Positions 121 through 58,801 of a DNA stretch of 64,000 nt are shown in pieces (position 1 is the first letter of the stretch; each line of letters begins with the position of its first letter). Both the position numbers and the translations under genes were made by a program. The stretch comes from Patescibacteria group bacterium (GTDB taxonomy: Bacteria; Patescibacteriota; WWE3; UBA101185; UBA10185). Under the pieces are notes generated by a model. That model saw only the letters and a list, made by a program, of their open reading frames with translations, was not told the DNA's origin and did no database searches. The stretch covers positions 168,996 to 232,995 of the forward strand of contig JAFGOI010000004.1 in NCBI GenBank assembly GCA_016926555.1. The letters are read 5' to 3'.

Positions 121-2196
121 ATGTTCAAACTTTACGCCCCCTTCGAACCAACCGGGGACCAACCAAGAGCAATAGATAGAATATCTGAGAACATCGCTAA
201 AGGTATTTCTGATCAAGTGTTGCTAGGTGTAACCGGGAGCGGAAAAACGTATGTAATGGCTAAAGTAATTGAAAAAACCCAAAAACCCGCATTAGTTATT
301 TCTCATAATAAAACTTTAGCTGCGCAGTTGTATCAGGAGTTTAGGGAATTTTTCCCTGAAAACGCGGTTGAGTACTTTGTTAGTTATTATGACTACTATC
401 AGCCTGAAAGCTATATTCCCTCAACTGATACGTACATAGAAAAAGATGCAGATATTAACGAAAGAATTGATAAGCTACGATTATCTGCAACAACCTCATT
501 GATGACAAGAAAGGATGTGATTGTTGTTGCCTCGGTTTCTTGTATTTACAATCTCGGTTCTCCGGTTGAATATTCTAAGTTTGCTATTGAACTTAGGAAG
601 GGAATGAGAATAAGAAAAACGGATTTACTAAAAAGACTATCTCAACTTCAGTATGATAGAAACGAGTTTGAGTTTTCGAGAGGTACTTACAGAGTTACAG
701 GAGATACTATAGATGTATTTCCGGCGTATTTAGATTATGCTTTAAGATTGGAAATACTTAGTGACAGTTTGATTGAAGCATATCCTTTTGATCCACTAAC
801 CGGGGAAGAAATAAGGTTCGACTTTCTCCCGAGTATTAGACAGGGGAGCTCTTCAAGAGCAAATACACAAGATTCAGATGATTACACTAGTCATGCGCTC
901 ACTTCCGGAAATTTGATAATGATTTATCCGGCGAAACACTACATCGCGGCGGAGGATAGGCGCGAGTCAGCGCTAAAACAAATTGAGAATGATCTAGAAG
1001 AGAGGTTGAAAGTTCTAAAATCTGCAGGAAAAGAAATTGAGGCGTATAGACTTAAACAAAGAACCGAATACGATATGGAAATGCTTAGAGAAATCGGATA
1101 CTGCAAAGGGATAGAGAATTATTCGAGATATTTTGACGGCAGAAATTCTGGACAAACCCCTTATTCTCTCATGGACTTTTTTCCGAAAGATTATGTATTA
1201 ATTGTAGATGAGTCTCATATTACGCTTCCTCAAGTTCGTGGTATGTACAATGGGGATTATGCCCGTAAAACTACGTTGATAGATTATGGGTTTAGACTTC
1301 CTTCGGCGCTGGATAACAGGCCACTTAATTTTGATGAGTTTTTGGGTAAAGTAAAACAGGGAGTATATGTAAGCGCTACTCCCGGGGATTGGGAGATAGA
1401 AAGGTCCAAAAGTAATATTGTTGAACTTCTAATAAGACCTACAGGGATAGTTGATCCCGAAGTTGTTATCCGGCCAACAAAGGGACAAATTCAAGATTTA
1501 TCCGACAGGATAACCGAAAGAGTTGGGAGGGGAGAAAGGGTGCTGGTTACGACATTGACAAAGAGAATGGCAGAAGAACTTGCAGGATTCTTATTAGAAA
1601 AGGGAATAAAAGTGACATATCTCCATTCTGATATAGATACGCTAGAAAGAACTGATATTTTGGATAATCTTAGAAAAGGCACATATGATGTTTTAGTGGG
1701 TATAAATCTATTGAGGGAGGGTCTGGATCTCCCCGAAGTTTCTTTGGTAGCAATACTGGATGCAGACAAAGAGGGATTTTTAAGATCAGATAGATCTCTG
1801 ATCCAGACGATGGGTAGGGCCGCGAGACACATATTGGGACAGGTGGTAATGTACGCCGATAATGTGACCGGGAGTATGGAAAGGGCTATAGAAGAGGTAA
1901 GCAGACGGCGAGAAATCCAGATAAAGTACAATGAGAAGTTTGGAATAACACCTCAGCAGATAGTAAAGCCTATAAGAGAGAAACTTATTAATGAAGAATT
2001 GGAGGAGAGCATTTCTAAAGACAAAAAGAAACGTGTTGAAGAAGTTGATTATTCTCAACTTCCGCCAGATGAAGTAGAAAAGGAGGTTACCGATCTGGAG
2101 AAAATGATGAAGTATGAAGCTGAAGTTCTAAACTTTGAGGAGGCGGCAAGACTAAGGGATAAAATTAGAGATATAAGAAAGAAGTATTTGAGTTAA
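121..2196 (+). CDS. uvrB: Excinuclease ABC subunit B (UvrB)
   Basis: 691 aa. Walker A 'GVTGSGKT', UvrB helicase motifs, and a C-terminal UVR motif '[15 protein letters not shown]'. Full-length ORF ends in TAA. Confidence 0.95.
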
Positions 2197-2203
2197 TTCT
2201 CTA

Positions 2204-4456
2204 TTGTTAAATTTTTTCACTCCTGATACATTCAAACTAGAAGCACTAATAATTCCTGCTACGATATTAATGAAAGAGTACGTTGTATTTATTGCGGATA
2301 TAATAAAAACTGTCGGCTATTTTGTTATATGGCCCATAGATCGTTTTGCCGCTTTTATCACTAATTTAAAAAATAAGTGGAAGAAAAAAGGAAGTAAGGA
2401 AAAACGTAAAGTCTCCAAGAAGAAACCATTTGTAAATACTAAAAAAAGAAAGTCCAGAAACAGACGGAGGGTACAAAAGGCAAAGAGACATAAAATAGTG
2501 TTTCACCCCGGCAGTTTTTTTATGGGTGGACTTATAGTTATAGTGTTCGGATTTGTGCCATACGAGTTTTACAAGTGGTTAAGACAGCTGCCTAATCCCA
2601 GCAATCTGATTGCGGAGAGTATTGGGAATAAATCAACCAAGATTTTGGATAAAGACGGGAGACTTCTTTATGAAATATATGTTGATAAGAAATTCGCCCC
2701 CGTTAAGTTATCTCAAATACCGGAGTCTGTTGTGAGAGCTACTATCGCGGTAGAAGACGATAATTTCTACAAACATAATGGTATAAGATTGGGCAGTATT
2801 GTCAGGGCGGGATTAAAAACTTTTTTTGAGGGCGAAGTGCAGGGCGGTTCAACAATTACACAGCAGTTGATTAAGAATGTTTTGCTGTCACCGGAGCAGA
2901 CTATATCCCGAAAACTAAAGGAAGCAATTCTTTCCATTATTGTCGAAACAAAGTATTCAAAGGATCAAATCTTAGAAATGTATCTGAATAATATTCCGTA
3001 CGGAGGTACTTCCTGGGGAGTTCAGTCTGCCTCTCAGAAATTCTTCGGTAAAAATGTGTGGGAGCTTAATTTGTCAGAGTCGAGTTTATTAGCCGGGTTG
3101 CCCTCGTCACCTTCTAGATACTCCCCGTTGTCTGATTTGGATTTGGCAAAGGAGAGGCAGAAATATGTTTTGAATAGGATGATTGATCTTCACTATATTA
3201 CGCAGGAACAGGCCGATGAGGCTTATGCTGAAGAGCTAGTATTTGCCGAACAGACTGATTATATACAGGCTCCGCATTTTGTTGACTACGTGAGAAGAGA
3301 ACTAGAGGAAAAGTATGGAAGAAGAATGGTGGATTTCGGCGGATTAACAGTGATTACGACACTTGATCTGAGCCTGCACAGGGAGGTACAGAATACTGTT
3401 ACTGACGGGGTAATCGAGAGCGCAAAGTACAGTATAACCAACGGCGCGGCAATTGTTCTAGATACGGAAACTGCGGGGATTTTAGCCTATGTTGGTTCTG
3501 TAGATTATTTTACGGAAGACTGGGGTGCGTATGATGTTATTACGGCTTACAGGCAGCCTGGTTCATCAATCAAACCGCTAACCTACGCGTTGGCGCTATC
3601 AAGTAACTACACTGCAGCGTCTGTACTGAAAGACGCGCCGGTTACGTATAAGATTGAAGGCCAGCCGGATTACAAGCCGGTTAACTATGATGGCAAGTAT
3701 CATGGGGATGTTACCTTGCGGGCCGCTTTAGCCAATTCGTACAATATACCCGCCGTCAGACTTTCAAAAGCGCTGGGCCCGGATAATATCATCTCTTTAG
3801 GCAGAAGCATGGGGCTGTCTAATTGGGAAGTGGACGGTTCGTATGGACTGTCAGTCACGCTTGGTGGGAAAGAAGTGCGGTTATTAGATTTAGCAAATTT
3901 ATACGCGACACTTGGGAGGAAAGGTGTGTATAAAAAAGTTTCCCCGTTTATATCGATAAAAGATAGCAAAGGGTATGAAATATATTGGGATACTAGGGTC
4001 GAAACCCGTCCCGTTTCGGAGGGGGTTGCATATATTTTGTGGAGTATATTATCCGATAATACAGCCAGAACACCCGCGTTTGGTCCGCGCAGTTCTTTGT
4101 ATATTCCAAATTATAAGGTGGCTGTGAAAACGGGTACTACGGATGAAAAGAGGGATAACTGGACACTTGGATTTACTCCCTCGTATACAGTAGGTGTGTG
4201 GGTTGGCAATAATAATAACGATCCTATGAACAGATACTTGGCTTCAGGTTTGAGCGGCGCGGCACCTATTTGGAATGAAATCATTCAGAAAGTTTTGGAG
4301 GGAAAACCAGATGAGAAGCTCAGTATGCCTGAGAATGTATTTATGAAAGTGGACGAATCCTGCAAGCCGGAAAGATCTGAGTTATTTATAAAGGGGTCTG
4401 ATATACCGAGGCATTTGTGTGTGACACAGAGGGATAAAGATGAGAGTGCGGATTAG
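2204..4456 (+). CDS. Class A penicillin-binding protein (bifunctional transglycosylase/transpeptidase, PBP1A-like)
   Basis: GT51 motifs 'RATIAVEDDNFYKHNG' and 'GGSTITQQL'. Transpeptidase motifs SxxK ('GSSIKP') and 'KTGTT'. Single TM segment after an unusually Lys/Arg-rich N-terminal tail. The true start may be an internal Met around 2270. Confidence 0.9.
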   Translation: MLNFFTPDTFKLEALIIPATILMKEYVVFIADIIKTVGYFVIWPIDRFAAFITNLKNKWKKKGSKEKRKVSKKKPFVNTKKRKSRNRRRVQKAKRHKIVFHPGSFFMGGLIVIVFGFVPYEFYKWLRQLPNPSNLIAESIGNKSTKILDKDGRLLYEIYVDKKFAPVKLSQIPESVVRATIAVEDDNFYKHNGIRLGSIVRAGLKTFFEGEVQGGSTITQQLIKNVLLSPEQTISRKLKEAILSIIVETKYSKDQILEMYLNNIPYGGTSWGVQSASQKFFGKNVWELNLSESSLLAGLPSSPSRYSPLSDLDLAKERQKYVLNRMIDLHYITQEQADEAYAEELVFAEQTDYIQAPHFVDYVRRELEEKYGRRMVDFGGLTVITTLDLSLHREVQNTVTDGVIESAKYSITNGAAIVLDTETAGILAYVGSVDYFTEDWGAYDVITAYRQPGSSIKPLTYALALSSNYTAASVLKDAPVTYKIEGQPDYKPVNYDGKYHGDVTLRAALANSYNIPAVRLSKALGPDNIISLGRSMGLSNWEVDGSYGLSVTLGGKEVRLLDLANLYATLGRKGVYKKVSPFISIKDSKGYEIYWDTRVETRPVSEGVAYILWSILSDNTARTPAFGPRSSLYIPNYKVAVKTGTTDEKRDNWTLGFTPSYTVGVWVGNNNNDPMNRYLASGLSGAAPIWNEIIQKVLEGKPDEKLSMPENVFMKVDESCKPERSELFIKGSDIPRHLCVTQRDKDESAD

Positions 4457-4469
4457 GTTCATGTGCACT

Positions 4470-5174
4470 TTAGTTGGAGTTTTGTTCGCTTTCCTCCTTG
4501 GAGGACTCGTCCTCTCTTATTTCGTTTCTCTCCGTTTCCTCCAAACATTTTCTCATAAATGATATTTTTACGTGATTAAACCCTCTTTCTGTATAATGCA
4601 CTCCTTTAGCTAACCACGAGTTGAAGTTGTCTGCGGCTTGTATGCTTAAGTAATGAAGTTCAAATATTCTTGCACCGCGTTCTATCCTGGATCGGAGGTA
4701 GTGTGTCGAATCCGCTATTGTCTGTACTTTGTCATCTAGTACCACATGCGGCCATTTTTCTGCTTGTCGAAGATGATAACATTCATGTCCCGTTGCTGCA
4801 GCTAGTCTATACTGGTGATAATAATATTGATATGGATTCTTTTCCCTATTCTCAGCGGCTTCTAAAAAAGCGGAGATAAAACTTTCCTTAATTGCTAAAT
4901 AAGGATCACGCCATTGACCCGATTCCTCTTCAACACCATAACGTACGGTCATAATGCTTGTTCCGGCAAGATTTTCCTTGATTTCCATACCGGGGTATGG
5001 AATATCTAAAATTTGTTCTAAATTGCATTGGTGCTTTGCTATTTCCTCGATGAAATTTAATTTAACTTCTTCGGAATAGTTTGGGAATCTTTCGTCAAGT
5101 TTAAGATCTTCTGCAATCCTTGCTTTTGTCTCTTCTAAATGAACTTCTTTGGGTGGAGGGGCTTCATAGTTCAT
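4470..5174 (-). CDS. Hypothetical zincin-like protein with HExxH..Q motif (DUF4157-like)
   Basis: 234 aa with no signal peptide. Motif 'ATGHECYHLRQAEKWP'. Clear paralog of the adjacent ORF ('FISAFLEAAE' vs 'WVASFLLAAE'). Confidence 0.45.
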   Translation of the reverse strand: MNYEAPPPKEVHLEETKARIAEDLKLDERFPNYSEEVKLNFIEEIAKHQCNLEQILDIPYPGMEIKENLAGTSIMTVRYGVEEESGQWRDPYLAIKESFISAFLEAAENREKNPYQYYYHQYRLAAATGHECYHLRQAEKWPHVVLDDKVQTIADSTHYLRSRIERGARIFELHYLSIQAADNFNSWLAKGVHYTERGFNHVKISFMRKCLEETERNEIREDESSKEESEQNSN

Positions 5175-5248
5175 ACTAACAATAATAGTACCAAATAAAG
5201 TATGTGTGAGTGGGGATTGAAGCTACTTGTATGTTAAGTATTGTCCTG

Positions 5249-6031
5249 TTAGCTTTCTTCCTCAGGTGACTTGTCCTCCAGGAGAGATTGAACTTTTTCT
5301 TTAATACCAAGAGCAAACATTATCTGCGGTTCGAGTTCTTCGATACATTTTGCCACGAGCGCTCTTTTTCTGTTGCGAAGTTCAAGTCCAACTAAACCTG
5401 CTTTTATGCCGTACCTTTCAAATATATCTTCAGCTTCTTGGGTTTCTAGGTAATAATGTGCAAAGATATTTGCAGATTTTTCTAGGCGTGAATCTGCGTA
5501 CTGTCTATAATCTCCCTCTTTTCTTGTTTGCTCGTATCTAGCGTAAGTATTAGGATACTTTTCGGGATATTTTTCATGTTGCTTTTTGTGAAAAAATTCA
5601 TGAGCTAAACTTTCAGTAAATCTTGCTTTCTCATAATTATACGAAAACGGAGTCAAGCTGGGATGCTCTGCTGCAAGCAGAAATGAAGCGACCCATGACC
5701 GGGATAGAGTAACAAACTCTCCCTTCTGGGTTTCTCCTGTTCTCGGAAATTGCGCTTCTCCATCATACAAATCCATGCCCCTATACTTTTGGCCCCCGAA
5801 ACGTTCTACACAATCCGGTATTCTGTCCCAAATCAAGTAAAAATCGGGAGGTTTCTCTATTTCTAATACGTCCTGTAACCTGCAATGATGTTCTGCAAGA
5901 TGGGAAACCAACCTTTCTTTTGCTTCTTTATTGATTCACGGGAATTCCTCGTCTAGAAATAATCTACTTCGGACCAGCTCTTTAGCTTCTTCGAACCTCT
6001 CTGCTTCGGGTGCTTGGGATTCATACTTCAT
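5249..6031 (-). pseudogene. Paralogous zincin-like HExxH protein ('LAHEFFHKKQHEKYP') interrupted by an in-frame TGA, or a split gene
   Basis: The ORF 5249..5911 (TTG start) continues in the same frame upstream to an ATG at 6029-6031. That upstream segment reads 'MKYESQAPEAERFEEAKELVRSRLFLDEEFP*' and aligns with the N-terminus of the 4470..5174 paralog ('MNYEAPPPKEVHLEETKARIAEDLKLDERFPNY'). The in-frame TGA at 5936-5938 sits exactly where the paralog has Asn. Confidence 0.4.
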
Positions 6032-6098
6032 ATGGTTATTATACTAACTTAATAACTAATCTTCACAAACCCGAACAAATACCGTATACTTTATCTCT

Positions 6099-9080
6099 AT
6101 GGACTCAAAACCCGATTACATCAAAATACGGGGTGCTCGTCAGCATAACTTAAAGAATATAGATGTAGATATTCCAAAAAATAAAATGATAGTGTTTACG
6201 GGTGTATCAGGGTCTGGTAAGTCATCTTTAGCGATGGACACTATATATGCTGAAGGCCAAAGAAGATATGTTGAAAGTTTGTCCGCGTATGCCCGTCAAT
6301 TCCTTGGTGTTATGGACAAGCCCGATGTTGATAAAATAGATGGCTTATCTCCCGCTATTGCTATAGATCAGAAAACCACATCAAAAAATCCCAGGTCAAC
6401 CGTAGGTACAGTAACAGAAATATATGATTTTCTGCGGCTGCTATTTGCCCGAGTAGGGCATCCGCACTGCCCGGAATGCGGTAGAGAAATTCAAAGGCAA
6501 AGTGCTGCGGAAATAGTACAAAGTATCTTAAAACTGGTGCAAGAACAAAAGGAGTTCACAACCGAGAGGGGCGTGAGGTTTCTAATTCTGTCTCCAATAA
6601 TTAGGGACAGAAAGGGAGAATATTCTTCGTTGTTTGAAAACTTGGTGAAACAGGGGATTTTAAAAGCCAGAATTGATGGAAAAATAAGGGATATACGCGA
6701 GAAGTTTAATCTCATTAAAACTAATAAACATACTATTGAAGGTCTAATTTCTCGCCATATATATAGCAGGAATAAAGGCGGGGATGTGAGCTATAAAAAG
6801 GATTTTGAGTCGTCACTTTTTCAGTCGGTTGAAACGTCTCTTAGATTATCGAGTGGCAATGTCGTTGTTACAATAGTAACGGATGCCTCTTTTGAGTTTG
6901 ATGATGCCCCGAAAAATACTGAAGACTTTCTGTTTTCGGAAAATTTTGCTTGCCCGGTTTGTAATATTTCACTTTCGGATATTGAGCCTAGAAGCTTTTC
7001 TTTCAATTCTCCCCATGGCGCGTGCCCAACTTGTGACGGACTTGGCACACAAATGCGTATAGACGAGGAAATGTTGGTGAGTCCAACTTTATCAATAATG
7101 GAAGGGGGGATTCTTCCATGGTCGAACTTGTTTGATCATAATACTTGGACGCAGAATGTGATTAGAGCCGTTGCGGAAGATTATGATATTGATCTATCAG
7201 TTCCTATTGGAAAAATGAAACGTGAGAATCTTGAAAAGTTTTTATATGGAGTTCCAGATAGGCGTTTCAAAGTAACATATACTTCGAGAGAAGGTGACAA
7301 AAACACCTATAACGCCAGATTTGAGGGAGTAATTCCCAATATGGCAAGACGTTATAAAGAAACCAAATCTGACTATATAAGAAATGAGATCGAAAAATAT
7401 ATGGTACTCGAACCGTGTCCTGTATGTGAGGGGTCCAGGTTGAAAAAAGAATCCCTATCTATTGTTGTAGCCGGACTAAATATCTCGGAAACCACTGCAA
7501 TGTCTATATTATCAGCCAAAGATTGGGTGTCTAATCTGCCTGGAGTTTTTACAGAAAGGGAGAATCAAATTGCTGAGGTGATTTTGAAAGAAATTAATTA
7601 TAGAATTAGGTTTTTGGTTGATGTGGGTTTGGGATATTTAACGTTAAATCGGGCTTCTGCTCATTTGTCCGGGGGAGAAGCTCAGAGAATAAGACTGGCC
7701 TCCCAGATAGGTACCGGGTTATCAGGAGTATTGTATGTGCTTGATGAGCCTTCAATTGGGTTACACCAAAAGGATCAATCTAAGTTAATAAGCACACTCC
7801 ATCATTTGAGAGACCTTGGGAATACGGTTATTGTTGTTGAGCACGATGAAGAAACTATGCTTGAGAGCGACTATATTTTGGATTTTGGCCCAGGTGCCGG
7901 TTATCACGGCGGAAAAATAATTGCCAAAGGAACTCCGGAGGAAATAAAAGGAAATGAGGAATCATTAACAGGAAGATATTTGGCAAAGAAACTAAAAGTG
8001 GGTAGAAATGGTCACATTGAAAGGAAGAGATTCGAGGAGTTATTGGAAGATGAAAGAAACGGAAAAGTTCAAGAGAAGGTTAACGGAAGATTTCTGTCGT
8101 TAAAAAAAGCCTCAGGTAGGAATCTGAAGAAGATAAATTTGGATATACCTCTTGGAAAAATAGTATGTATTACCGGTGTGTCTGGGTCAGGTAAATCCAC
8201 CTTAATAATGGATACGCTCTATAAGGAACTAAGACATCATTTCGGACTTAAACTTGTTGAGAAACCAGAGGATAACGAAGGTTTAGCAGGAACAGAGTAT
8301 ATTGATAAAGTAATCGCGATTGATCAAAGTCCTATTGGAAGAACACCTAAATCTAATCCGGCAACTTATACAAAGACCTTTGATCATATTCGGCAGCTAT
8401 TTTCAAAGACTCAAGAAGCAAGAATACGCGGATATAGGCCGGGCAGGTTCAGCTTCAATGTAAAAGGCGGAAGATGTGAGGCGTGCGGGGGTGAAGGGCA
8501 GATTAAAATTGAAATGCAGTTTATGCCGGATGTATATGTAAATTGTGAAGTTTGTGATGGGAAAAGATACAATCGGGAGGCTCTGGAAGTCGAGTATAAA
8601 GGTAAGAATATTGCAGATGTCTTAGACATGACTGTTGAAGAAGCACTTAGATTTTTTGATCCTATTCCCCAAATCAGGAGGAAACTTCAGACCCTTTTTG
8701 ATGTGGGATTAGGTTATATACACCTTGGCCAGCCGGCTCCTACCTTATCAGGAGGGGAGGCGCAGAGGATAAAGTTGGCATCTGAATTGTCAAAAAAATC
8801 TACGGGTAGCACACTTTATATTTTAGATGAACCCACAACCGGGTTGCACTTTGCCGATCTGGAAAATCTAATTAGTATCTTTAAAAGGTTAACTGTTAGG
8901 GGCAATACAGTGGTTGTAATAGAACACAACTTAGATATAATCAAAAATTCGGATTGGGTGGTCGACTTAGGACCTGAAGGAGGGGATGCAGGTGGTGAGG
9001 TTGTGTTCGCAGGACCGCTGGAAGAACTTCGTGAACACCCAACATCATACACATCGCAGGCTTTAAATAATTACAAATAG
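6099..9080 (+). CDS. uvrA: Excinuclease ABC subunit A (UvrA)
   Basis: 993 aa. Two ABC ATPase modules ('GVSGSGKSSLA', 'GVSGSGKSTL'), LSGGE signatures and zinc-finger CxxC pairs. Confidence 0.95.
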   Translation: MDSKPDYIKIRGARQHNLKNIDVDIPKNKMIVFTGVSGSGKSSLAMDTIYAEGQRRYVESLSAYARQFLGVMDKPDVDKIDGLSPAIAIDQKTTSKNPRSTVGTVTEIYDFLRLLFARVGHPHCPECGREIQRQSAAEIVQSILKLVQEQKEFTTERGVRFLILSPIIRDRKGEYSSLFENLVKQGILKARIDGKIRDIREKFNLIKTNKHTIEGLISRHIYSRNKGGDVSYKKDFESSLFQSVETSLRLSSGNVVVTIVTDASFEFDDAPKNTEDFLFSENFACPVCNISLSDIEPRSFSFNSPHGACPTCDGLGTQMRIDEEMLVSPTLSIMEGGILPWSNLFDHNTWTQNVIRAVAEDYDIDLSVPIGKMKRENLEKFLYGVPDRRFKVTYTSREGDKNTYNARFEGVIPNMARRYKETKSDYIRNEIEKYMVLEPCPVCEGSRLKKESLSIVVAGLNISETTAMSILSAKDWVSNLPGVFTERENQIAEVILKEINYRIRFLVDVGLGYLTLNRASAHLSGGEAQRIRLASQIGTGLSGVLYVLDEPSIGLHQKDQSKLISTLHHLRDLGNTVIVVEHDEETMLESDYILDFGPGAGYHGGKIIAKGTPEEIKGNEESLTGRYLAKKLKVGRNGHIERKRFEELLEDERNGKVQEKVNGRFLSLKKASGRNLKKINLDIPLGKIVCITGVSGSGKSTLIMDTLYKELRHHFGLKLVEKPEDNEGLAGTEYIDKVIAIDQSPIGRTPKSNPATYTKTFDHIRQLFSKTQEARIRGYRPGRFSFNVKGGRCEACGGEGQIKIEMQFMPDVYVNCEVCDGKRYNREALEVEYKGKNIADVLDMTVEEALRFFDPIPQIRRKLQTLFDVGLGYIHLGQPAPTLSGGEAQRIKLASELSKKSTGSTLYILDEPTTGLHFADLENLISIFKRLTVRGNTVVVIEHNLDIIKNSDWVVDLGPEGGDAGGEVVFAGPLEELREHPTSYTSQALNNYK

Positions 9081-9104
9081 TGTTGTGACTGGTACTACCG
9101 TATA

Positions 9105-10862
9105 TTAATCTATTACCATCAAACTCTTCTCAACGACTTCTCCGTTGAAGGTTTCATATCTCACCTTGCTTGATCCTTTGGGAAGGAATAGTGTCACCTC
9201 TTCATCTGGTGCGAGATTTTGGATTTTATTATTGATGTCGTATACAAAAACGTGACCTTCGTTTTTCAACTTGAATTTTTGGTTGCCTCTAAGGATTTGT
9301 AATATATTAAAATTCCTCTTTTTGATTAATATCAGTTTTTCTTCAAATGCTCTGGGGTCTTCTTCCTGTGCGAAATCGACGTCAACTAGGTTGCCTATAT
9401 CCGAAAATCTGTATGTTCCGGCTGGTAAAGGGTATTCCGATTCAGTTCCTCTGATTACAAAAGCAAAATGATTTGTATCCGTTTTGGTGAAATAGTCGAC
9501 TTTGGCGGTATTTCCCCAAGTTGGGTCGACTTGTATCCAGCCGTAAAATGGGTCATAGAACTCTGCCCATGCGTGAAGGTAATCTCCTCCCCTCAATTTT
9601 ATTGAAAGTGGTTTGTCCTCTGATAAATTTGAAAATGCGTGCCCGTTAATTTCCCGGGCAGGTATCCCCATAGATCTTGCTATGGTTATAAATAGATCCG
9701 AAAACTCCATGCAGGTCCATGGTTTCTTTTGCGTAGCGGCTTTTAGGGCTCCGTTTCTTTGTATATTGCCGTTTTCTACAGCCTCGTAGTTGTATTCAAG
9801 ATTATTTACTACGTAGTTGTAAGTTTCTTGGGCGTTTTGAATCACATTGTTGTCTTCGTTAATCAATGTCTTTGCTATTTTCTGTATCTCCGGAGAGTTG
9901 ACTTCCCAGTAAGGCTGTTCATTCGTATATGCTTTGATATATTTTTTCGGTATATTATCCATCTCTCCGCCGAATTCAGAATTGATCTGTCTGCCTGTAA
10001 TTCTCGCTTTACCTGTTACTGTGATTTCGAGTTTGCCCCTAGATTTTATCTTATATCTTGCCATTGCATTTCCATTGGAATCCAGGACAACGTTTTTTGG
10101 CGCGGGTGTAATGTTTTCGTACTTCACTTGCTGTATATGCGGGATATCCGGTGGGAGGGCTATTTCGTAAGTGCCCGGCAGGATAGAAGGATTCTCTATT
10201 TGATATGTCAACCTAAAATTCACAATTTGATATTTGCCGAAAGAAGCTGAAATTCCTTTGTCAATAAGCTGCTCTCTTGTTAAATAATAATTCGTTTTTC
10301 CGTTACTGTTTTCTTCTGTCACAGGCGATGGAGAGATGTACACTTTTGGACCGAATTGATTAGGTATTGATAGTTGCACGTTATAGAATGCTGTAGATTT
10401 AGTAAATTCGGTTTTTGGAATGTTAATGTTCCAAATTTCTCCTACTTTTGATGAAAGGTCTGTTGTTTTGTAAATCAATTCAATTTTATTTTGTCGTCCT
10501 TCTCCGATAACATAATTCGTTATATTCAGTTTGATCTTTGTTTCATTGTTTTCAGAAGTTTTCTCGGGTTCTATGGACTTGTTGTTTACGGTTGCAGATA
10601 TACCATATACTTCCATTTGTTTGAATGTTAGTGTGTAACTACTTGCGATTACATCGCTGACCAGATTTGTTACATTTATATTTTGGGTTACTACCGCTTC
10701 CCCGTTTTCTTGAAAGTCAAAATGAATTTTATACTCAGTTGAAAACTGCTCGGTTTTAGCGTATGCCTTTTGTGTCAAATGTGTCAAAGGAAATATGCAT
10801 AATAAGCCCAGAGTAGTCAGTAAACTGCCAATAGATTTGATTTTCATCAGTAACTTGGGCAC
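9105..10862 (-). CDS. Secreted transglutaminase-like cysteine protease domain protein
   Basis: N-terminal signal peptide/TM. C-terminal transglutaminase core 'WTCMEFSDLFITIARSMGIPAR...HAWAEFYDPFYGWIQVDPTWG' (Cys-His-Asp). Confidence 0.6.
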   Translation of the reverse strand: MPKLLMKIKSIGSLLTTLGLLCIFPLTHLTQKAYAKTEQFSTEYKIHFDFQENGEAVVTQNINVTNLVSDVIASSYTLTFKQMEVYGISATVNNKSIEPEKTSENNETKIKLNITNYVIGEGRQNKIELIYKTTDLSSKVGEIWNINIPKTEFTKSTAFYNVQLSIPNQFGPKVYISPSPVTEENSNGKTNYYLTREQLIDKGISASFGKYQIVNFRLTYQIENPSILPGTYEIALPPDIPHIQQVKYENITPAPKNVVLDSNGNAMARYKIKSRGKLEITVTGKARITGRQINSEFGGEMDNIPKKYIKAYTNEQPYWEVNSPEIQKIAKTLINEDNNVIQNAQETYNYVVNNLEYNYEAVENGNIQRNGALKAATQKKPWTCMEFSDLFITIARSMGIPAREINGHAFSNLSEDKPLSIKLRGGDYLHAWAEFYDPFYGWIQVDPTWGNTAKVDYFTKTDTNHFAFVIRGTESEYPLPAGTYRFSDIGNLVDVDFAQEEDPRAFEEKLILIKKRNFNILQILRGNQKFKLKNEGHVFVYDINNKIQNLAPDEEVTLFLPKGSSKVRYETFNGEVVEKSLMVID

Positions 10863-10900
10863 ACGATAATTTTACATTATTAATAGTACAATAACACTAA

Positions 10901-12256
10901 ATGAGTGACGTATTAAAAGAAAAAGTTAAGAAATTACCCCGTTCCCCGGGTATATATAAGTTTCTAGATAAAAACGAGAGAATTATTTACGTTGGTAAAG
11001 CTATTGACTTAAAGTCGCGTGTCGGATCTTACTTTAGTGTAAAACTTGATCCGGGGTCTAAAACTTATATTTTGGTTTCCGAAATTAGAGATATCGCCTA
11101 TATAGAGACCGAATCGGAAATAGAGGCGTTAGTTTTAGAGGCCGAATTAATCAAGAAGTATAAACCCAGGTTTAATATAAACCTCAAGGATAATAAGTCT
11201 TTTTTGTACATTGTTGTTAGACCGGAGAAAAAAGAAGTAAGGGGCAGATTGCGCACGTTATCTTCAGTGTTTATCTTGAGAAAACAGGATCTTGAGAAAG
11301 GCGATACTTACTTTGGCCCTTTTCCCAGCAGCCGGATTACAAGATCAGTAGTTCGTACATTAAGAAAGGTGTTTCCGCATAAAGATTGCAGCCCGTCAAA
11401 ATTTACCAGATATAGAAAAGTGCAAAAGACTTGTCTATATGGCCATATAGGTCTGTGCACAGGACCTTGCGTAAATGATGATAATACTGAGATCAGAGAG
11501 TATCAGTCTTATATAAATAAAATAAAGAAATTTCTTGGGGGAGATACGTCTTCATTAATTCAAGGGGTAGTAAAGCAAATGAATGCCGCTTCGAAGAGTC
11601 TTAAGTATGAAAAAGCGGCTTTCTATAGAGATTTGCTGGAGAAGTTTAATTATATCCGTCAGAGTTTCAGGACCCCAAGAGAGTATATGGAAAACCCTTA
11701 TCTCAAATATGATTTGGCGGAGGATGCAGTTGAAGAACTGCGAGAAGTACTGCCTACCCTTCATAAATTGCCTGAGAGGATTGAATGTTACGATATTTCA
11801 ACTATTTCTGGGGATTCTTCGGTTGGATCGATGGTTGTGGCGTTGATGGGCAATCTAGATACTACGGAATATAGAAGATTTAGGATTAAAACAAAAAATA
11901 CGCCAGACGATTTTGAGATGATGCGAGAGGTCTTGTCTAGGAGGCTAAAAAGAGAAAGGAGCAGATCAAAAAATGTTAAAAAATGGGGGTTACCAGATCT
12001 TATTGTTGTAGATGGGGGAAAAGGGCAAGTTAGCGCAGTAAGGGAGATTTTGTCCTGGTTAAATTTTGATATATGCGTAATAGGTTTGGCTAAGAAGAAT
12101 GAAACTGTTATTTATTATGAAAACGGCCAGTACAGGTGTCTTTCCCCGAATAGAGATGCGAAACCAATGAAGTTGCTCATAAAGCTTAGGGATGAGTCCC
12201 ACAGGTTTGCACAAAGCTATCACCACTTGCTTCGCAAGAAAAGTCTGCGAGAATGA
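10901..12256 (+). CDS. uvrC: Excinuclease ABC subunit C (UvrC), short form
   Basis: GIY-YIG domain 'SPGIYKFLDKNERIIYVGKAIDLKSRV' and a UvrC endonuclease region. 451 aa, so the C-terminal HhH region is reduced. Stop codon is TGA. Confidence 0.8.
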   Translation: MSDVLKEKVKKLPRSPGIYKFLDKNERIIYVGKAIDLKSRVGSYFSVKLDPGSKTYILVSEIRDIAYIETESEIEALVLEAELIKKYKPRFNINLKDNKSFLYIVVRPEKKEVRGRLRTLSSVFILRKQDLEKGDTYFGPFPSSRITRSVVRTLRKVFPHKDCSPSKFTRYRKVQKTCLYGHIGLCTGPCVNDDNTEIREYQSYINKIKKFLGGDTSSLIQGVVKQMNAASKSLKYEKAAFYRDLLEKFNYIRQSFRTPREYMENPYLKYDLAEDAVEELREVLPTLHKLPERIECYDISTISGDSSVGSMVVALMGNLDTTEYRRFRIKTKNTPDDFEMMREVLSRRLKRERSRSKNVKKWGLPDLIVVDGGKGQVSAVREILSWLNFDICVIGLAKKNETVIYYENGQYRCLSPNRDAKPMKLLIKLRDESHRFAQSYHHLLRKKSLRE

Positions 12257-35628: not shown

Positions 35629-36528
35629 TCACGATTCTGATGCTTCATTTTTTATGAAATCCAGTATCTTTTCTCTTAAGTCATCTCTTCTTAGTGCGAA
35701 TTTTATCGAGGTTTTAAGGTATCTTAAAGGATCCCCTGTTGTCAGCCATTCACCTTTAATTGGGGGAGCAATTACTTTTTTACCTTCATGCGCGAGCTCG
35801 TTAAGAATATCCGATACCCATAATTCATTGTCTTTACCGGGTTTCGTCTCTTCAGCCTTTCTGATTACATCATACGAAAAGACGAATCTGCCAAATTGAA
35901 CTTTGTTAGAATACGCTTCTTCTTTTGGCAATTTCTCCATAATTCCTTCTACTTCGCATCCATTTTCATCCTTGTATTTTACTGTGCCGTATCTATCCAC
36001 TTCTTCCCAAGGTACTTCTTGAACACCTACTGCGGCTACGGCATTATGCTCTAGATATGCGTCTATAAGTTGTTTGGTGATTGGAGGGAACCCGTTGCAC
36101 CATGTTAGGTCGTCAGCGAACATATAAACGAAGGAATCATTCTCATCAATTAATTCTTTTATAGCTATTAAAGGAGAGCCGTTTCCGTAGGGAAGGTGTC
36201 CCTTTTGCCTTACGTAGACAAAATTAGCCATTTGAGGAATATTTCGGACCATTTCCAGCCGCTTTGTTTTTCTGGATGATTCTAATTGGGCCTCCAGTTC
36301 GTATCTGTTATCAAAATAATCCTCAATAAGGTGATTTCCAAATCTAGTGACTAATATTATATCCCGTATACCGGAATTTACTGCTTCTTCCACCACATAA
36401 TGGAGAATCGGTTTGTCGATTATCGGGAGCATCTCTTTTGGCTGGTTTTTTGTTGCCGGTAAAAATCTGGTTCCGAATCCAGCCGCAATTATAACTGCCT
36501 TTGTTATTTGTGTCTGGGGATTTTCCAT
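35629..36528 (-). CDS. galU: UTP--glucose-1-phosphate uridylyltransferase (GalU)
   Basis: 'KAVIIAAGFGTRFLPATKNQPKEMLPIIDKP' nucleotidyltransferase signature. 299 aa. Confidence 0.9.
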   Translation of the reverse strand: MENPQTQITKAVIIAAGFGTRFLPATKNQPKEMLPIIDKPILHYVVEEAVNSGIRDIILVTRFGNHLIEDYFDNRYELEAQLESSRKTKRLEMVRNIPQMANFVYVRQKGHLPYGNGSPLIAIKELIDENDSFVYMFADDLTWCNGFPPITKQLIDAYLEHNAVAAVGVQEVPWEEVDRYGTVKYKDENGCEVEGIMEKLPKEEAYSNKVQFGRFVFSYDVIRKAEETKPGKDNELWVSDILNELAHEGKKVIAPPIKGEWLTTGDPLRYLKTSIKFALRRDDLREKILDFIKNEASES

Positions 36529-57724: not shown

Positions 57725-58801
57725 TTACTGCCTGAGAGAATTAATTACAGTATTGTAGGTATGTACATTGTGTATGCTCGCCAAACGGTATGCAGTAGTT
57801 TCATTGATTTTAAATAAATGATGCAAGTATGCTTTGGTATATTTTTTACATGTGGTGCAATTGCAGGATTTTGATATCGGGTTTTTATCTTTTTTATACT
57901 TTGAGCTTCCGATGTTTATTAGTTCGTATGACTCCGGATCACATAAACTTGTTAGCGAATTTCGGGCACGTTTCAAACTATACAACCGTTTGTGTCTGGC
58001 ATCTCTAGTGGGAAGTGTACAATCAAAAATTTCCCAGCCCTGTGTAAATAGTGTAACTATCTGCCAGGGAGTTCCAATTCCCAAAGCAAATTTAAAATAA
58101 TTATCAGGAATAAGTTGTGCTGTATATTCTGATATCCCATAGTCAAAGTTGCCTTTTTTATCCATCGGATAGCCGCCATAACCGTATCCATCGAAACCGA
58201 TTTCTAAAAGTTTTTCTGCGCAGTACTTACGCAGTTTTTTGTCGGAATGTCCTTGTATAACTGCCATTAGTTTTGGTCTATCATGTTGCTTCATTTGCCG
58301 TTTTGTTATCTGTTTCTCAAATTCTATTTTTGACTTTTGAGCCCATAAAATAGTTCTTTCCACAGAGTTTTTTAGTTCTTTTTTGTCAGCTTTCGGATTC
58401 GTAAAATCATCTAGACATACTATAATATCGGAACCTATTTCAAATTGGATTTTAATTGATTCTTCCGGTGTGAATAGTTTCTTTTTTTGGCCATTTTCTT
58501 GAAAATAAACACCTTCATCCGTAATTTTTCCGGATCTTTTATGTCTATAAATTAACGAAAAAATCTGCCATCCCCCCGAATCCGAAACAACCAGACCTTT
58601 ATAGTTCATAAAGCCTTTTATACCGCCAAATTTCCCTAAAACTTCCATACCGGGATTTTTCAATAGGTGGTAAGTGTTAACTACAACTCCCTCCACTTTT
58701 TTAAGATCTTCAAGGCCGAGTGATCTAATTACGCCTAAAGTCGCATCTGGTAGGTATATAGGTAGCTTGTAATTTTTTCCTTGTATGTTTATTTTGGTCA
58801 C
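57725..58801 (-). CDS. tgt: tRNA-guanine transglycosylase (queuine tRNA-ribosyltransferase)
   Basis: 'LPDATLGVIRSLG', catalytic 'VVSDSGGWQ' and zinc site 'CNCTTCKKYTKAYLHHL'. Confidence 0.85.
   Translation of the reverse strand: MTKINIQGKNYKLPIYLPDATLGVIRSLGLEDLKKVEGVVVNTYHLLKNPGMEVLGKFGGIKGFMNYKGLVVSDSGGWQIFSLIYRHKRSGKITDEGVYFQENGQKKKLFTPEESIKIQFEIGSDIIVCLDDFTNPKADKKELKNSVERTILWAQKSKIEFEKQITKRQMKQHDRPKLMAVIQGHSDKKLRKYCAEKLLEIGFDGYGYGGYPMDKKGNFDYGISEYTAQLIPDNYFKFALGIGTPWQIVTLFTQGWEIFDCTLPTRDARHKRLYSLKRARNSLTSLCDPESYELINIGSSKYKKDKNPISKSCNCTTCKKYTKAYLHHLFKINETTAYRLASIHNVHTYNTVINSLRQ

Follow-up and report, generated by a model that had tools for sequence, protein, structure and literature searches.

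The genome of a Patescibacteria group bacterium of the WWE3 lineage encodes, in the window considered here (the whole 64,000-nucleotide stretch of contig JAFGOI010000004.1 that was analysed), two adjacent minus-strand paralogs of a zincin-like protein family, located between the genes for a class-A penicillin-binding protein (PBP) and uvrA. The explanation that we prefer, with a probability of roughly 0.6, is that they are a gluzincin-type pair of which the first gene, open reading frame (ORF) A, is intact and the second, ORF B, is a young nonsense-mutated duplicate, now either a pseudogene or the source of a shortened protein. The window has a guanine-plus-cytosine (GC) content of 38.7% and belongs to a Patescibacteria metagenome-assembled genome (MAG), of which a 288-kb contig bears the two genes as JXA34_01190 and JXA34_01195 (NCBI tags). 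The features of the pair are the following.

ORF A (JXA34_01190): 4470-5174, minus strand; 234 amino acids (aa), intact member of an uncurated zincin-like family.
HExxH motif of ORF A: 4773-4787, minus strand; residues 130-134.
Putative third ligand of ORF A, Glu165: 4680-4682, minus strand.
ORF B body (JXA34_01195): 5249-5935, minus strand; frame open past the TGA, called by NCBI as 220 aa from TTG 5911.
HExxH motif of ORF B: 5588-5602, minus strand.
Glu of the glutamate helix of ORF B: 5480-5482, minus strand.
In-frame TGA of ORF B: 5936-5938, minus strand; codon 32 counted from ATG 6031.
N-terminal fragment of ORF B: 5939-6031, minus strand; 31 codons (MKYESQAPEAERFEEAKELVRSRLFLDEEFP), homologous to the N-termini of A and of other members.

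A and read-through B are 26% identical over 238 aa (E 4e-24), and their alignment continues uninterrupted through the TGA, which lies opposite Asn32 of A. From the ATG at 6031-6029, the earliest start past an in-frame TAG, B consists of 31 codons, TGA 5938-5936 and a body in the same frame, the whole spanning 5249-6031 on the minus strand; the 31-residue N-terminal piece is identical to A at 13 of 31 positions (42%, counted by hand on the alignment). All family-invariant residues are kept in the body. A and B are mutually best matches (84 bits, versus at most 62 bits to other members), and for this reason an old local duplication fits the pair. A sequence-only reading, made earlier from the letters of the window, had described clear paralogs with zincin-type HExxH sites and no signal sequence, and had placed the TGA in frame with 31 upstream codons at the position of an Asn in the paralog. 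The analysis agrees on each count, both segments of B being homologous to A by computed alignment; both motifs quoted in that reading are found in the two proteins, neither has a signal peptide, and the HExxH residues are invariant in the family. The reading had put the end of B at 6033, which is off by 2 nucleotides (nt), the ATG being at 6031.

The TGA is real at the level of read consensus. Over 6283 base pairs (bp), TGA included, the window agrees letter for letter with an independently assembled Logan contig of run SRR13394437, and the codon is therefore not an assembler artefact, a possibility that the sequence-only reading had wished to see checked. The standard code evidently holds, because TGA is the terminator of 11 of the 53 long ORFs in the window and the TGA of uvrC is trailed by many in-frame stops; murA and other genes of the window also end in TGA, so that the earlier description of TGA as a genuine stop in uvrC and murA was correct. 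Code reassignment was rejected on these grounds. UGA is reassigned in some Patescibacteria lineages, and decoding of the TGA in vivo (as selenocysteine, Trp or Gly), or else a sequencing or minor-variant artefact, would accord with the perfectly kept frame and with the 42% identity of the N-terminal piece to that of A. This alternative is nevertheless highly improbable, given the termination of uvrC, murA and other genes at TGA, and several further results oppose it. The RNA 3' of the TGA folds no better than shuffled sequences (minimum free energy -11.1 kcal/mol, z 0.40), with no structure resembling a selenocysteine insertion sequence seen there; an Rfam scan of 4300-6300 gave no relevant match; and none of the 5 tRNAs seen in the window is a suppressor. 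The residue aligned to the TGA in homologs is D, N or K, never Cys or Trp, and none of their codons is a single step from TGA. Against an artefact, two assemblers produced the same base calls. No intact allele of B was found in a 5.8-billion-cluster protein collection or in the metagenome scan, nor any ortholog in the public data searched. Nonsense mutation, reinitiation and readthrough, the options listed in the sequence-only reading, were thus the right set, and the first of the three is now favoured.

The family to which A and B belong appears to be very rare, uncurated and confined to Patescibacteria-type genomes. An exhaustive HMMER search with a profile of A and B against 1.84e9 representatives (E < 1e-3) returned 11 proteins in all, A and B among them; the homologs are 187-327 aa long, each falls in a cluster of 1-3 sequences, and all derive from Patescibacteria MAGs or metagenomes. 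A degenerate DNA motif scan of metagenome contigs (AHExYHxRxxxxFP) gave 18 loci, of which about 5-6 are true members (L048, L049/L053, L050, L052, L057 = L007) and the others chance matches; it brought four further loci to the family. Little beyond the queries themselves came back from word-indexed homolog searches, whether with A, with B or with the family profile, and no relative turned up when metagenomes were scanned with B. For A and B, Pfam, NCBIfam, PHROGs and PADLOC gave nothing above threshold, and sequence and profile searches of the PDB gave no match at E <= 10.

Seven residues are invariant in the family alignment (H130, E131, H134, P142, E165, A168 and F171, in the numbering of A) and three are nearly so (Y133, R163 and Y175); the N-terminus bears a conserved G-L-x-L-D-E-x-F-P motif, and 31 residues past HExxH stands a Glu, the third conserved element. 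AlphaFold2 (AF2) modelled A on the 11-sequence alignment with a mean predicted local distance difference test score (pLDDT) of 86.5 and a predicted template modelling score (pTM) of 0.79, whereas the two paralogs alone gave a pLDDT of 54, too poor for use. In the model an N-terminal helical hairpin is followed by a three-stranded sheet, a backing helix, the HExxH helix (114-140), the E165 helix (163-177) and a long C-terminal helix, so that the arrangement expected of zincins of the gluzincin type (clan MA), with HExxH on one helix and Glu on the following one, is found family-wide. The family shares a predicted zincin fold with conserved catalytic-type residues, and A is probably a cytoplasmic gluzincin-type metallopeptidase, predicted to be active. 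Aligned to the model of A, the TGA of B lies within the loop that joins the first two N-terminal helices (the "F-P-D/N" loop of the family).

Start-site features separate the native start of B from the one annotated. Among the long ORFs of the window, 20 of 41 show a TAnnnT-type -10 box that ends 4-9 nt (mode 6) ahead of the start codon and no Shine-Dalgarno sequence, compared with 6.3% of all ATG, GTG and TTG triplets that have such a box in the same placement; because of this excess, leaderless-type initiation looks widespread in this genome. A and B each have elements of this kind.

Promoter-like site of ORF A: 5182-5210, minus strand; -35 CTCACA and -10 TATTAT, the -10 ending 7 nt before the ATG.
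-10 box of ORF B, TATAAT: 6038-6043, minus strand; 6 nt upstream of ATG 6031, the modal spacing of the window.

TTG 5911, by comparison, lacks both a -10 box and a Shine-Dalgarno sequence at proper spacing, its sole feature being an AAGG placed right against the start codon. B therefore has as its native start ATG 6031, where TATAAT stands at the modal gap. A and B look like separate transcription units. Other examples of leaderless-type starts, beside those at 5174 and 6031, are at 6099, 16504, 19683, 35629-36528, 49476 and 57725-58801; Shine-Dalgarno-like motifs occur chiefly ahead of operon-internal genes.

These features can be assembled into a history of the pair. A and B would stem from a tandem duplication, old and lineage-specific, of a small cytoplasmic protein with a zincin fold, and they lie in a variable junction of the conserved uvrB-PBP1A-uvrA-uvrC cluster in a WWE3-like genome. 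The zinc ligands would be His130 and His134 of the active-site helix and Glu165 of the long helix that follows, with Glu131 as general base, and a separate leaderless-type promoter would drive each gene. A, which is intact, presumably functions. In B a recent nonsense mutation would have put TGA at codon 32, within the loop that follows helix 1; translation begun at ATG 6031 would in consequence halt after 31 residues, and B would survive as a young pseudogene or, at best, as a low-level protein without some 40 N-terminal residues, made by reinitiation at TTG 5911. Zinc binding, peptidase activity, substrate and the fate of B are all things that we infer.

Several observations weigh against this explanation. 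The 228-codon body of B is open and retains every invariant residue, so that its inactivation would have to be very recent, or the body is still in use. The two assemblies that agree on the TGA probably share the same reads. The family matched no curated protease family above threshold, and Foldseek comparisons of the model with the PDB and with viral structures gave nothing significant; it is the motif and the predicted fold that argue for catalysis. Finally, another member of the family has a lesion of a different kind that breaks it at this very loop, an outcome not expected of random decay.

This second case is P0005, at locus L039 (GCA_034680565.1, JAXOUH010022611.1; 5894-6564), which is split at the F-P-D loop as B is. 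A 36-aa ORF, MEYQVIDLDIEKVEQTKERIRSGFSENEKFTSLILQ, bears the N-terminal helix of the family, and the TGA that closes it overlaps the GTG of the 187-aa body (GTGA). The simplest account of the split is a putative 1-nt deletion in a short C run at 5989-5990, and P0007 (L004), an ortholog of P0005 in the same synteny with genes for uracil-DNA glycosylase (UDG) and RNase J, is unsplit. B might accordingly be read as a functional two-piece gene, in which the N-terminal helix and the zincin body are made separately, translation stopping at the TGA and reinitiating 24 nt further on, at TTG 5911; one role for the helix, once free, could be to complement the core or to inhibit it. Such a reading gains from the independent split of P0005 at the same loop, in the classic GTGA arrangement for translational coupling, from the open body of B with its full set of invariant residues, and from the intact native promoter and ATG. 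On the other side, the lesions in the two split members (2 of about 15) are unlike, one nonsense and the other a 1-nt frameshift; detection is biased to N-terminal lesions, as a long ORF stays callable only after a lesion of this kind; TTG 5911 lacks a Shine-Dalgarno sequence at proper spacing; and some 13 other members with a complete N-terminus have it in one piece. We consider the two-piece reading unlikely, the low weight being due to the detection bias and to the small share of members affected. Similarly doubtful is the more general proposal that a break past the first helix, leaving mini-ORFs of 31-36 residues that end in TGA, is a recurrent split that is tolerated or selected; if true, it would make the protein a two-chain enzyme with a detachable helix serving as a trans-acting lid or inhibitor.

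If B is instead a young nonsense-mutated duplicate, as we prefer, it offers a clean case of such a lesion, hidden by the downstream TTG call of the annotation pipeline. The analysis defines, besides, an extremely rare zincin-like family that had not been curated before, with a confident predicted fold and a catalytic-type signature; should its members be active, a cytoplasmic metalloprotease would join the very limited set of proteolytic enzymes of these reduced-genome episymbionts. No major open question is altered by these results.

The surroundings of the pair support its description in the sequence-only reading as an antisense insertion between the PBP gene and uvrA. The genes and the element that border it are as follows.

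PBP1A gene (class-A PBP with Transgly and Transpeptidase domains): 2204-4456; flanks the minus-strand pair.
uvrA: 6099-9080; flanks the pair on the other side.
uvrA promoter element: 6060-6090, plus strand, CTTCACAAACCCGAACAAATACCGTATACT, and over 6060-6092 CTTCACAAACCCGAAnAAATnCCGTAnnAT; marks the right edge of the inserted segment.

The neighbours in the window are uvrB, PBP1A, uvrA, a transglutaminase-like gene and uvrC. Among 30 related loci retrieved by means of the PBP, the nearest are of WWE3 type (PBP identity about 55-65%) and keep the order uvrB-PBP-uvrA-transglutaminase-uvrC. Three relatives have a gap of about 100 bp between the PBP gene and uvrA; in L022 this space is taken by an unrelated 137-aa gene (4653-5066), and in L011 by unrelated genes of 66 and 281 aa (9954-11340). 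Because relatives have either a short gap or unrelated genes at this place, the pair evidently sits in a variable junction. A search of related genomes for the pair, which the earlier reading had suggested, found a zincin-family gene at none of the 30 loci, and by this comparison of gene content the pair is extra in this genome relative to its relatives. Flanking repeats and target-site duplications were sought around the insertion and only short chance repeats were seen, and there is no GC anomaly across the region.

The uvrA promoter element, which holds a -35 TTCACA and a -10, is kept in six genomes (that of the window and those of L009, L010, L011, L022 and L023), the PBPs of these relatives being just about 55-65% identical. 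Its 17-nt spacer is conserved far beyond the needs of a promoter, and may for that reason be an operator, such as an SOS-type box. In L011, promoter-like sequence of uvrA is seemingly duplicated upstream of an inserted gene; the junction genes of L011 and L022 resemble small membrane proteins. The UvrC encoded at 10901-12256 is short (451 aa), with GIY-YIG, UVR and RNase H-like domains and without the C-terminal helix-hairpin-helix (HhH) domain, and its relatives align over equal length (to residue 450-451).

Elsewhere, members of the family are single-copy and stand beside varied housekeeping genes: those for UDG and RNase J, for GatB and an apurinic/apyrimidinic (AP) endonuclease, for a receiver domain protein together with the dnaK operon, and for the CCA-adding enzyme and RecJ. 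Family members are often within three genes of DNA-repair genes, by a post-hoc count in small, gene-dense genomes. The UDG gene lies directly upstream of the member in L004 (6860-8089) and L039 (5233-6564), an AP endonuclease gene is near the member in L061 (7001-10372), genes for an HhH-GPD protein and RecJ are near that in L002 (4784-11689), and uvrABC flank the pair in the window (121-12256).

The sequence-only reading had assigned both proteins to DUF4157, on the strength of HExxH followed by Q, and had thereby implied a link to polymorphic toxins or contractile injection systems (CIS). DUF4157 is the HExxH-bearing core domain of extracellular CIS (eCIS), and association with eCIS or toxins is taken as defining it (PMC8213781). 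Eight plasmid-borne annotated proteins (L065-L072), all of which match PF13699 (now eCIS_core) at E <= 1e-26, served as the reference. The two families have HExxH in common, A and B both have Q at the +3 position, and in a single hhalign comparison the HExxH helix and the downstream R-x-E-x-x-A helix of the family paired with those of DUF4157 (E 0.0046, score 26, 47 active-site columns). The probability of this match is, however, 7.6%; the sheet part, the bulk of PF13699, is unaligned; and none of the 11 members, A, B or the nine homologs, matches PF13699 at E <= 10. The QQ of A-H-E-x-x-H-x-x-Q-Q, invariant in the DUF4157 reference alignment, is not kept in the family, where +3 is Q, A, E, G or V and +4 is also variable. 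Each of the roughly seven genomic contexts of members is a housekeeping one, with no CIS or toxin genes, and the family scores better against ImmA/IrrE (M78) than against DUF4157. Membership of A and B in DUF4157 is hardly credible on this evidence and is refuted at the level that sequence and profile comparison can test; neither the label nor the implied toxin or injection-system link of the earlier reading survives. A mis-annotation is thereby corrected: HExxH..Q is insufficient for calling DUF4157 or for proposing such a link. The likeness that remains consists of HExxH, a downstream E-x-E-A helix in the reference alignment and a similar distance to M78; the difference is that the family consists of stand-alone proteins of about 200-250 aa in Patescibacteria housekeeping neighbourhoods, without QQ. 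Several of the DUF4157 references have a D-P-x-D-x-x-E-R-E-A-E helix about 25-30 residues past HExxH, outside the 79-position Pfam model, which hhalign pairs with the Glu helix of ImmA/IrrE (67%); this helix may hold the third metal ligand of DUF4157.

Proteins of the SprT/Wss1/Spartan type invite comparison in that several family members adjoin DNA-repair genes, the post-hoc association described above. The third ligand of SprT/Wss1 is a His (HExxHx5H); that of the family is an invariant Glu, and the likeness is no better than to other zincins. The clan MA gluzincins (M1, for example ERAP1, 3qnf; M32; M13; M56, BlaR1; and minigluzincins such as selecase, 4qhf) resemble the predicted model in having a three-stranded sheet, a backing helix, an HExxH helix and a glutamate helix, and we count this as a likeness of the predicted model to solved zincins, Foldseek having given nothing significant; the HExxH-to-Glu spacing and the flanking helices of these gluzincins are unlike those of the family.

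The best profile-profile match obtained for the family is to M78, compared here through eight annotated ImmA/IrrE proteins, all of which match PF06114. The hhalign probability is 65% (E 6e-5, 60 columns over HExxH and the Glu helix), and H130, E131, H134, E165, A168 and F171 of the family align with H80, E81, H84, E117, A120 and F123 of the M78 reference set. Both are small cytoplasmic proteins with HExxH on a helix and, about 27-31 residues on, a Glu in an E-x-x-A-x-x-F-A helix. A and B could on this basis be divergent members of ImmA/IrrE (Peptidase_M78), regulatory proteases with a partner repressor as the protein they cleave, and the similar spacing of the two helices and a weak PF06114 match of B (15.4 bits, E 0.016) speak for it, as does the gene 5 bp upstream of P0008 in L002. 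That match is, however, below the gathering score of 22 and is found in 1 of 11 members, A and the nine homologs giving none, and the likeness is no stronger than that between DUF4157 and ImmA/IrrE (67%, E 5.4e-5, 73 columns), which served as the control. No helix-turn-helix (HTH) partner gene of the XRE type stands beside A or B in the window, and most other contexts have no adjacent HTH gene, whereas such a gene is annotated directly upstream of ImmA in 6 of 8 reference loci. The upstream gene in L002 has no Pfam match and is part of a separate conserved DUF4446-DUF3048 block. An M78 regulatory protease is therefore an improbable identity for the pair.

The upstream gene in L002 (7411-7995) encodes 194 aa that look winged-helix-like by eye, and L040 has a similar 196-aa gene after DUF4446-DUF3048, with its zincin gene elsewhere. 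Because L040 keeps such a gene with no zincin beside it, the pairing in L002 is probably incidental; as a candidate tandem partner the 194-aa gene was rejected, being no paralog and having no conserved link to the zincin.

Since 65% equals the 67% of the control, the relation of the family to M78 is at clan level; and since the family stands at about the same distance from M78 as DUF4157 does, with DUF4157 itself more distant from it still, it is, by profile comparison, a separate family within the zincin clan. Its alignment with M78 is confined to the active-site core, around which it has its own N-terminal helical hairpin, bearing G-L-x-L-D-E-x-F-P, and its own long C-terminal helix.

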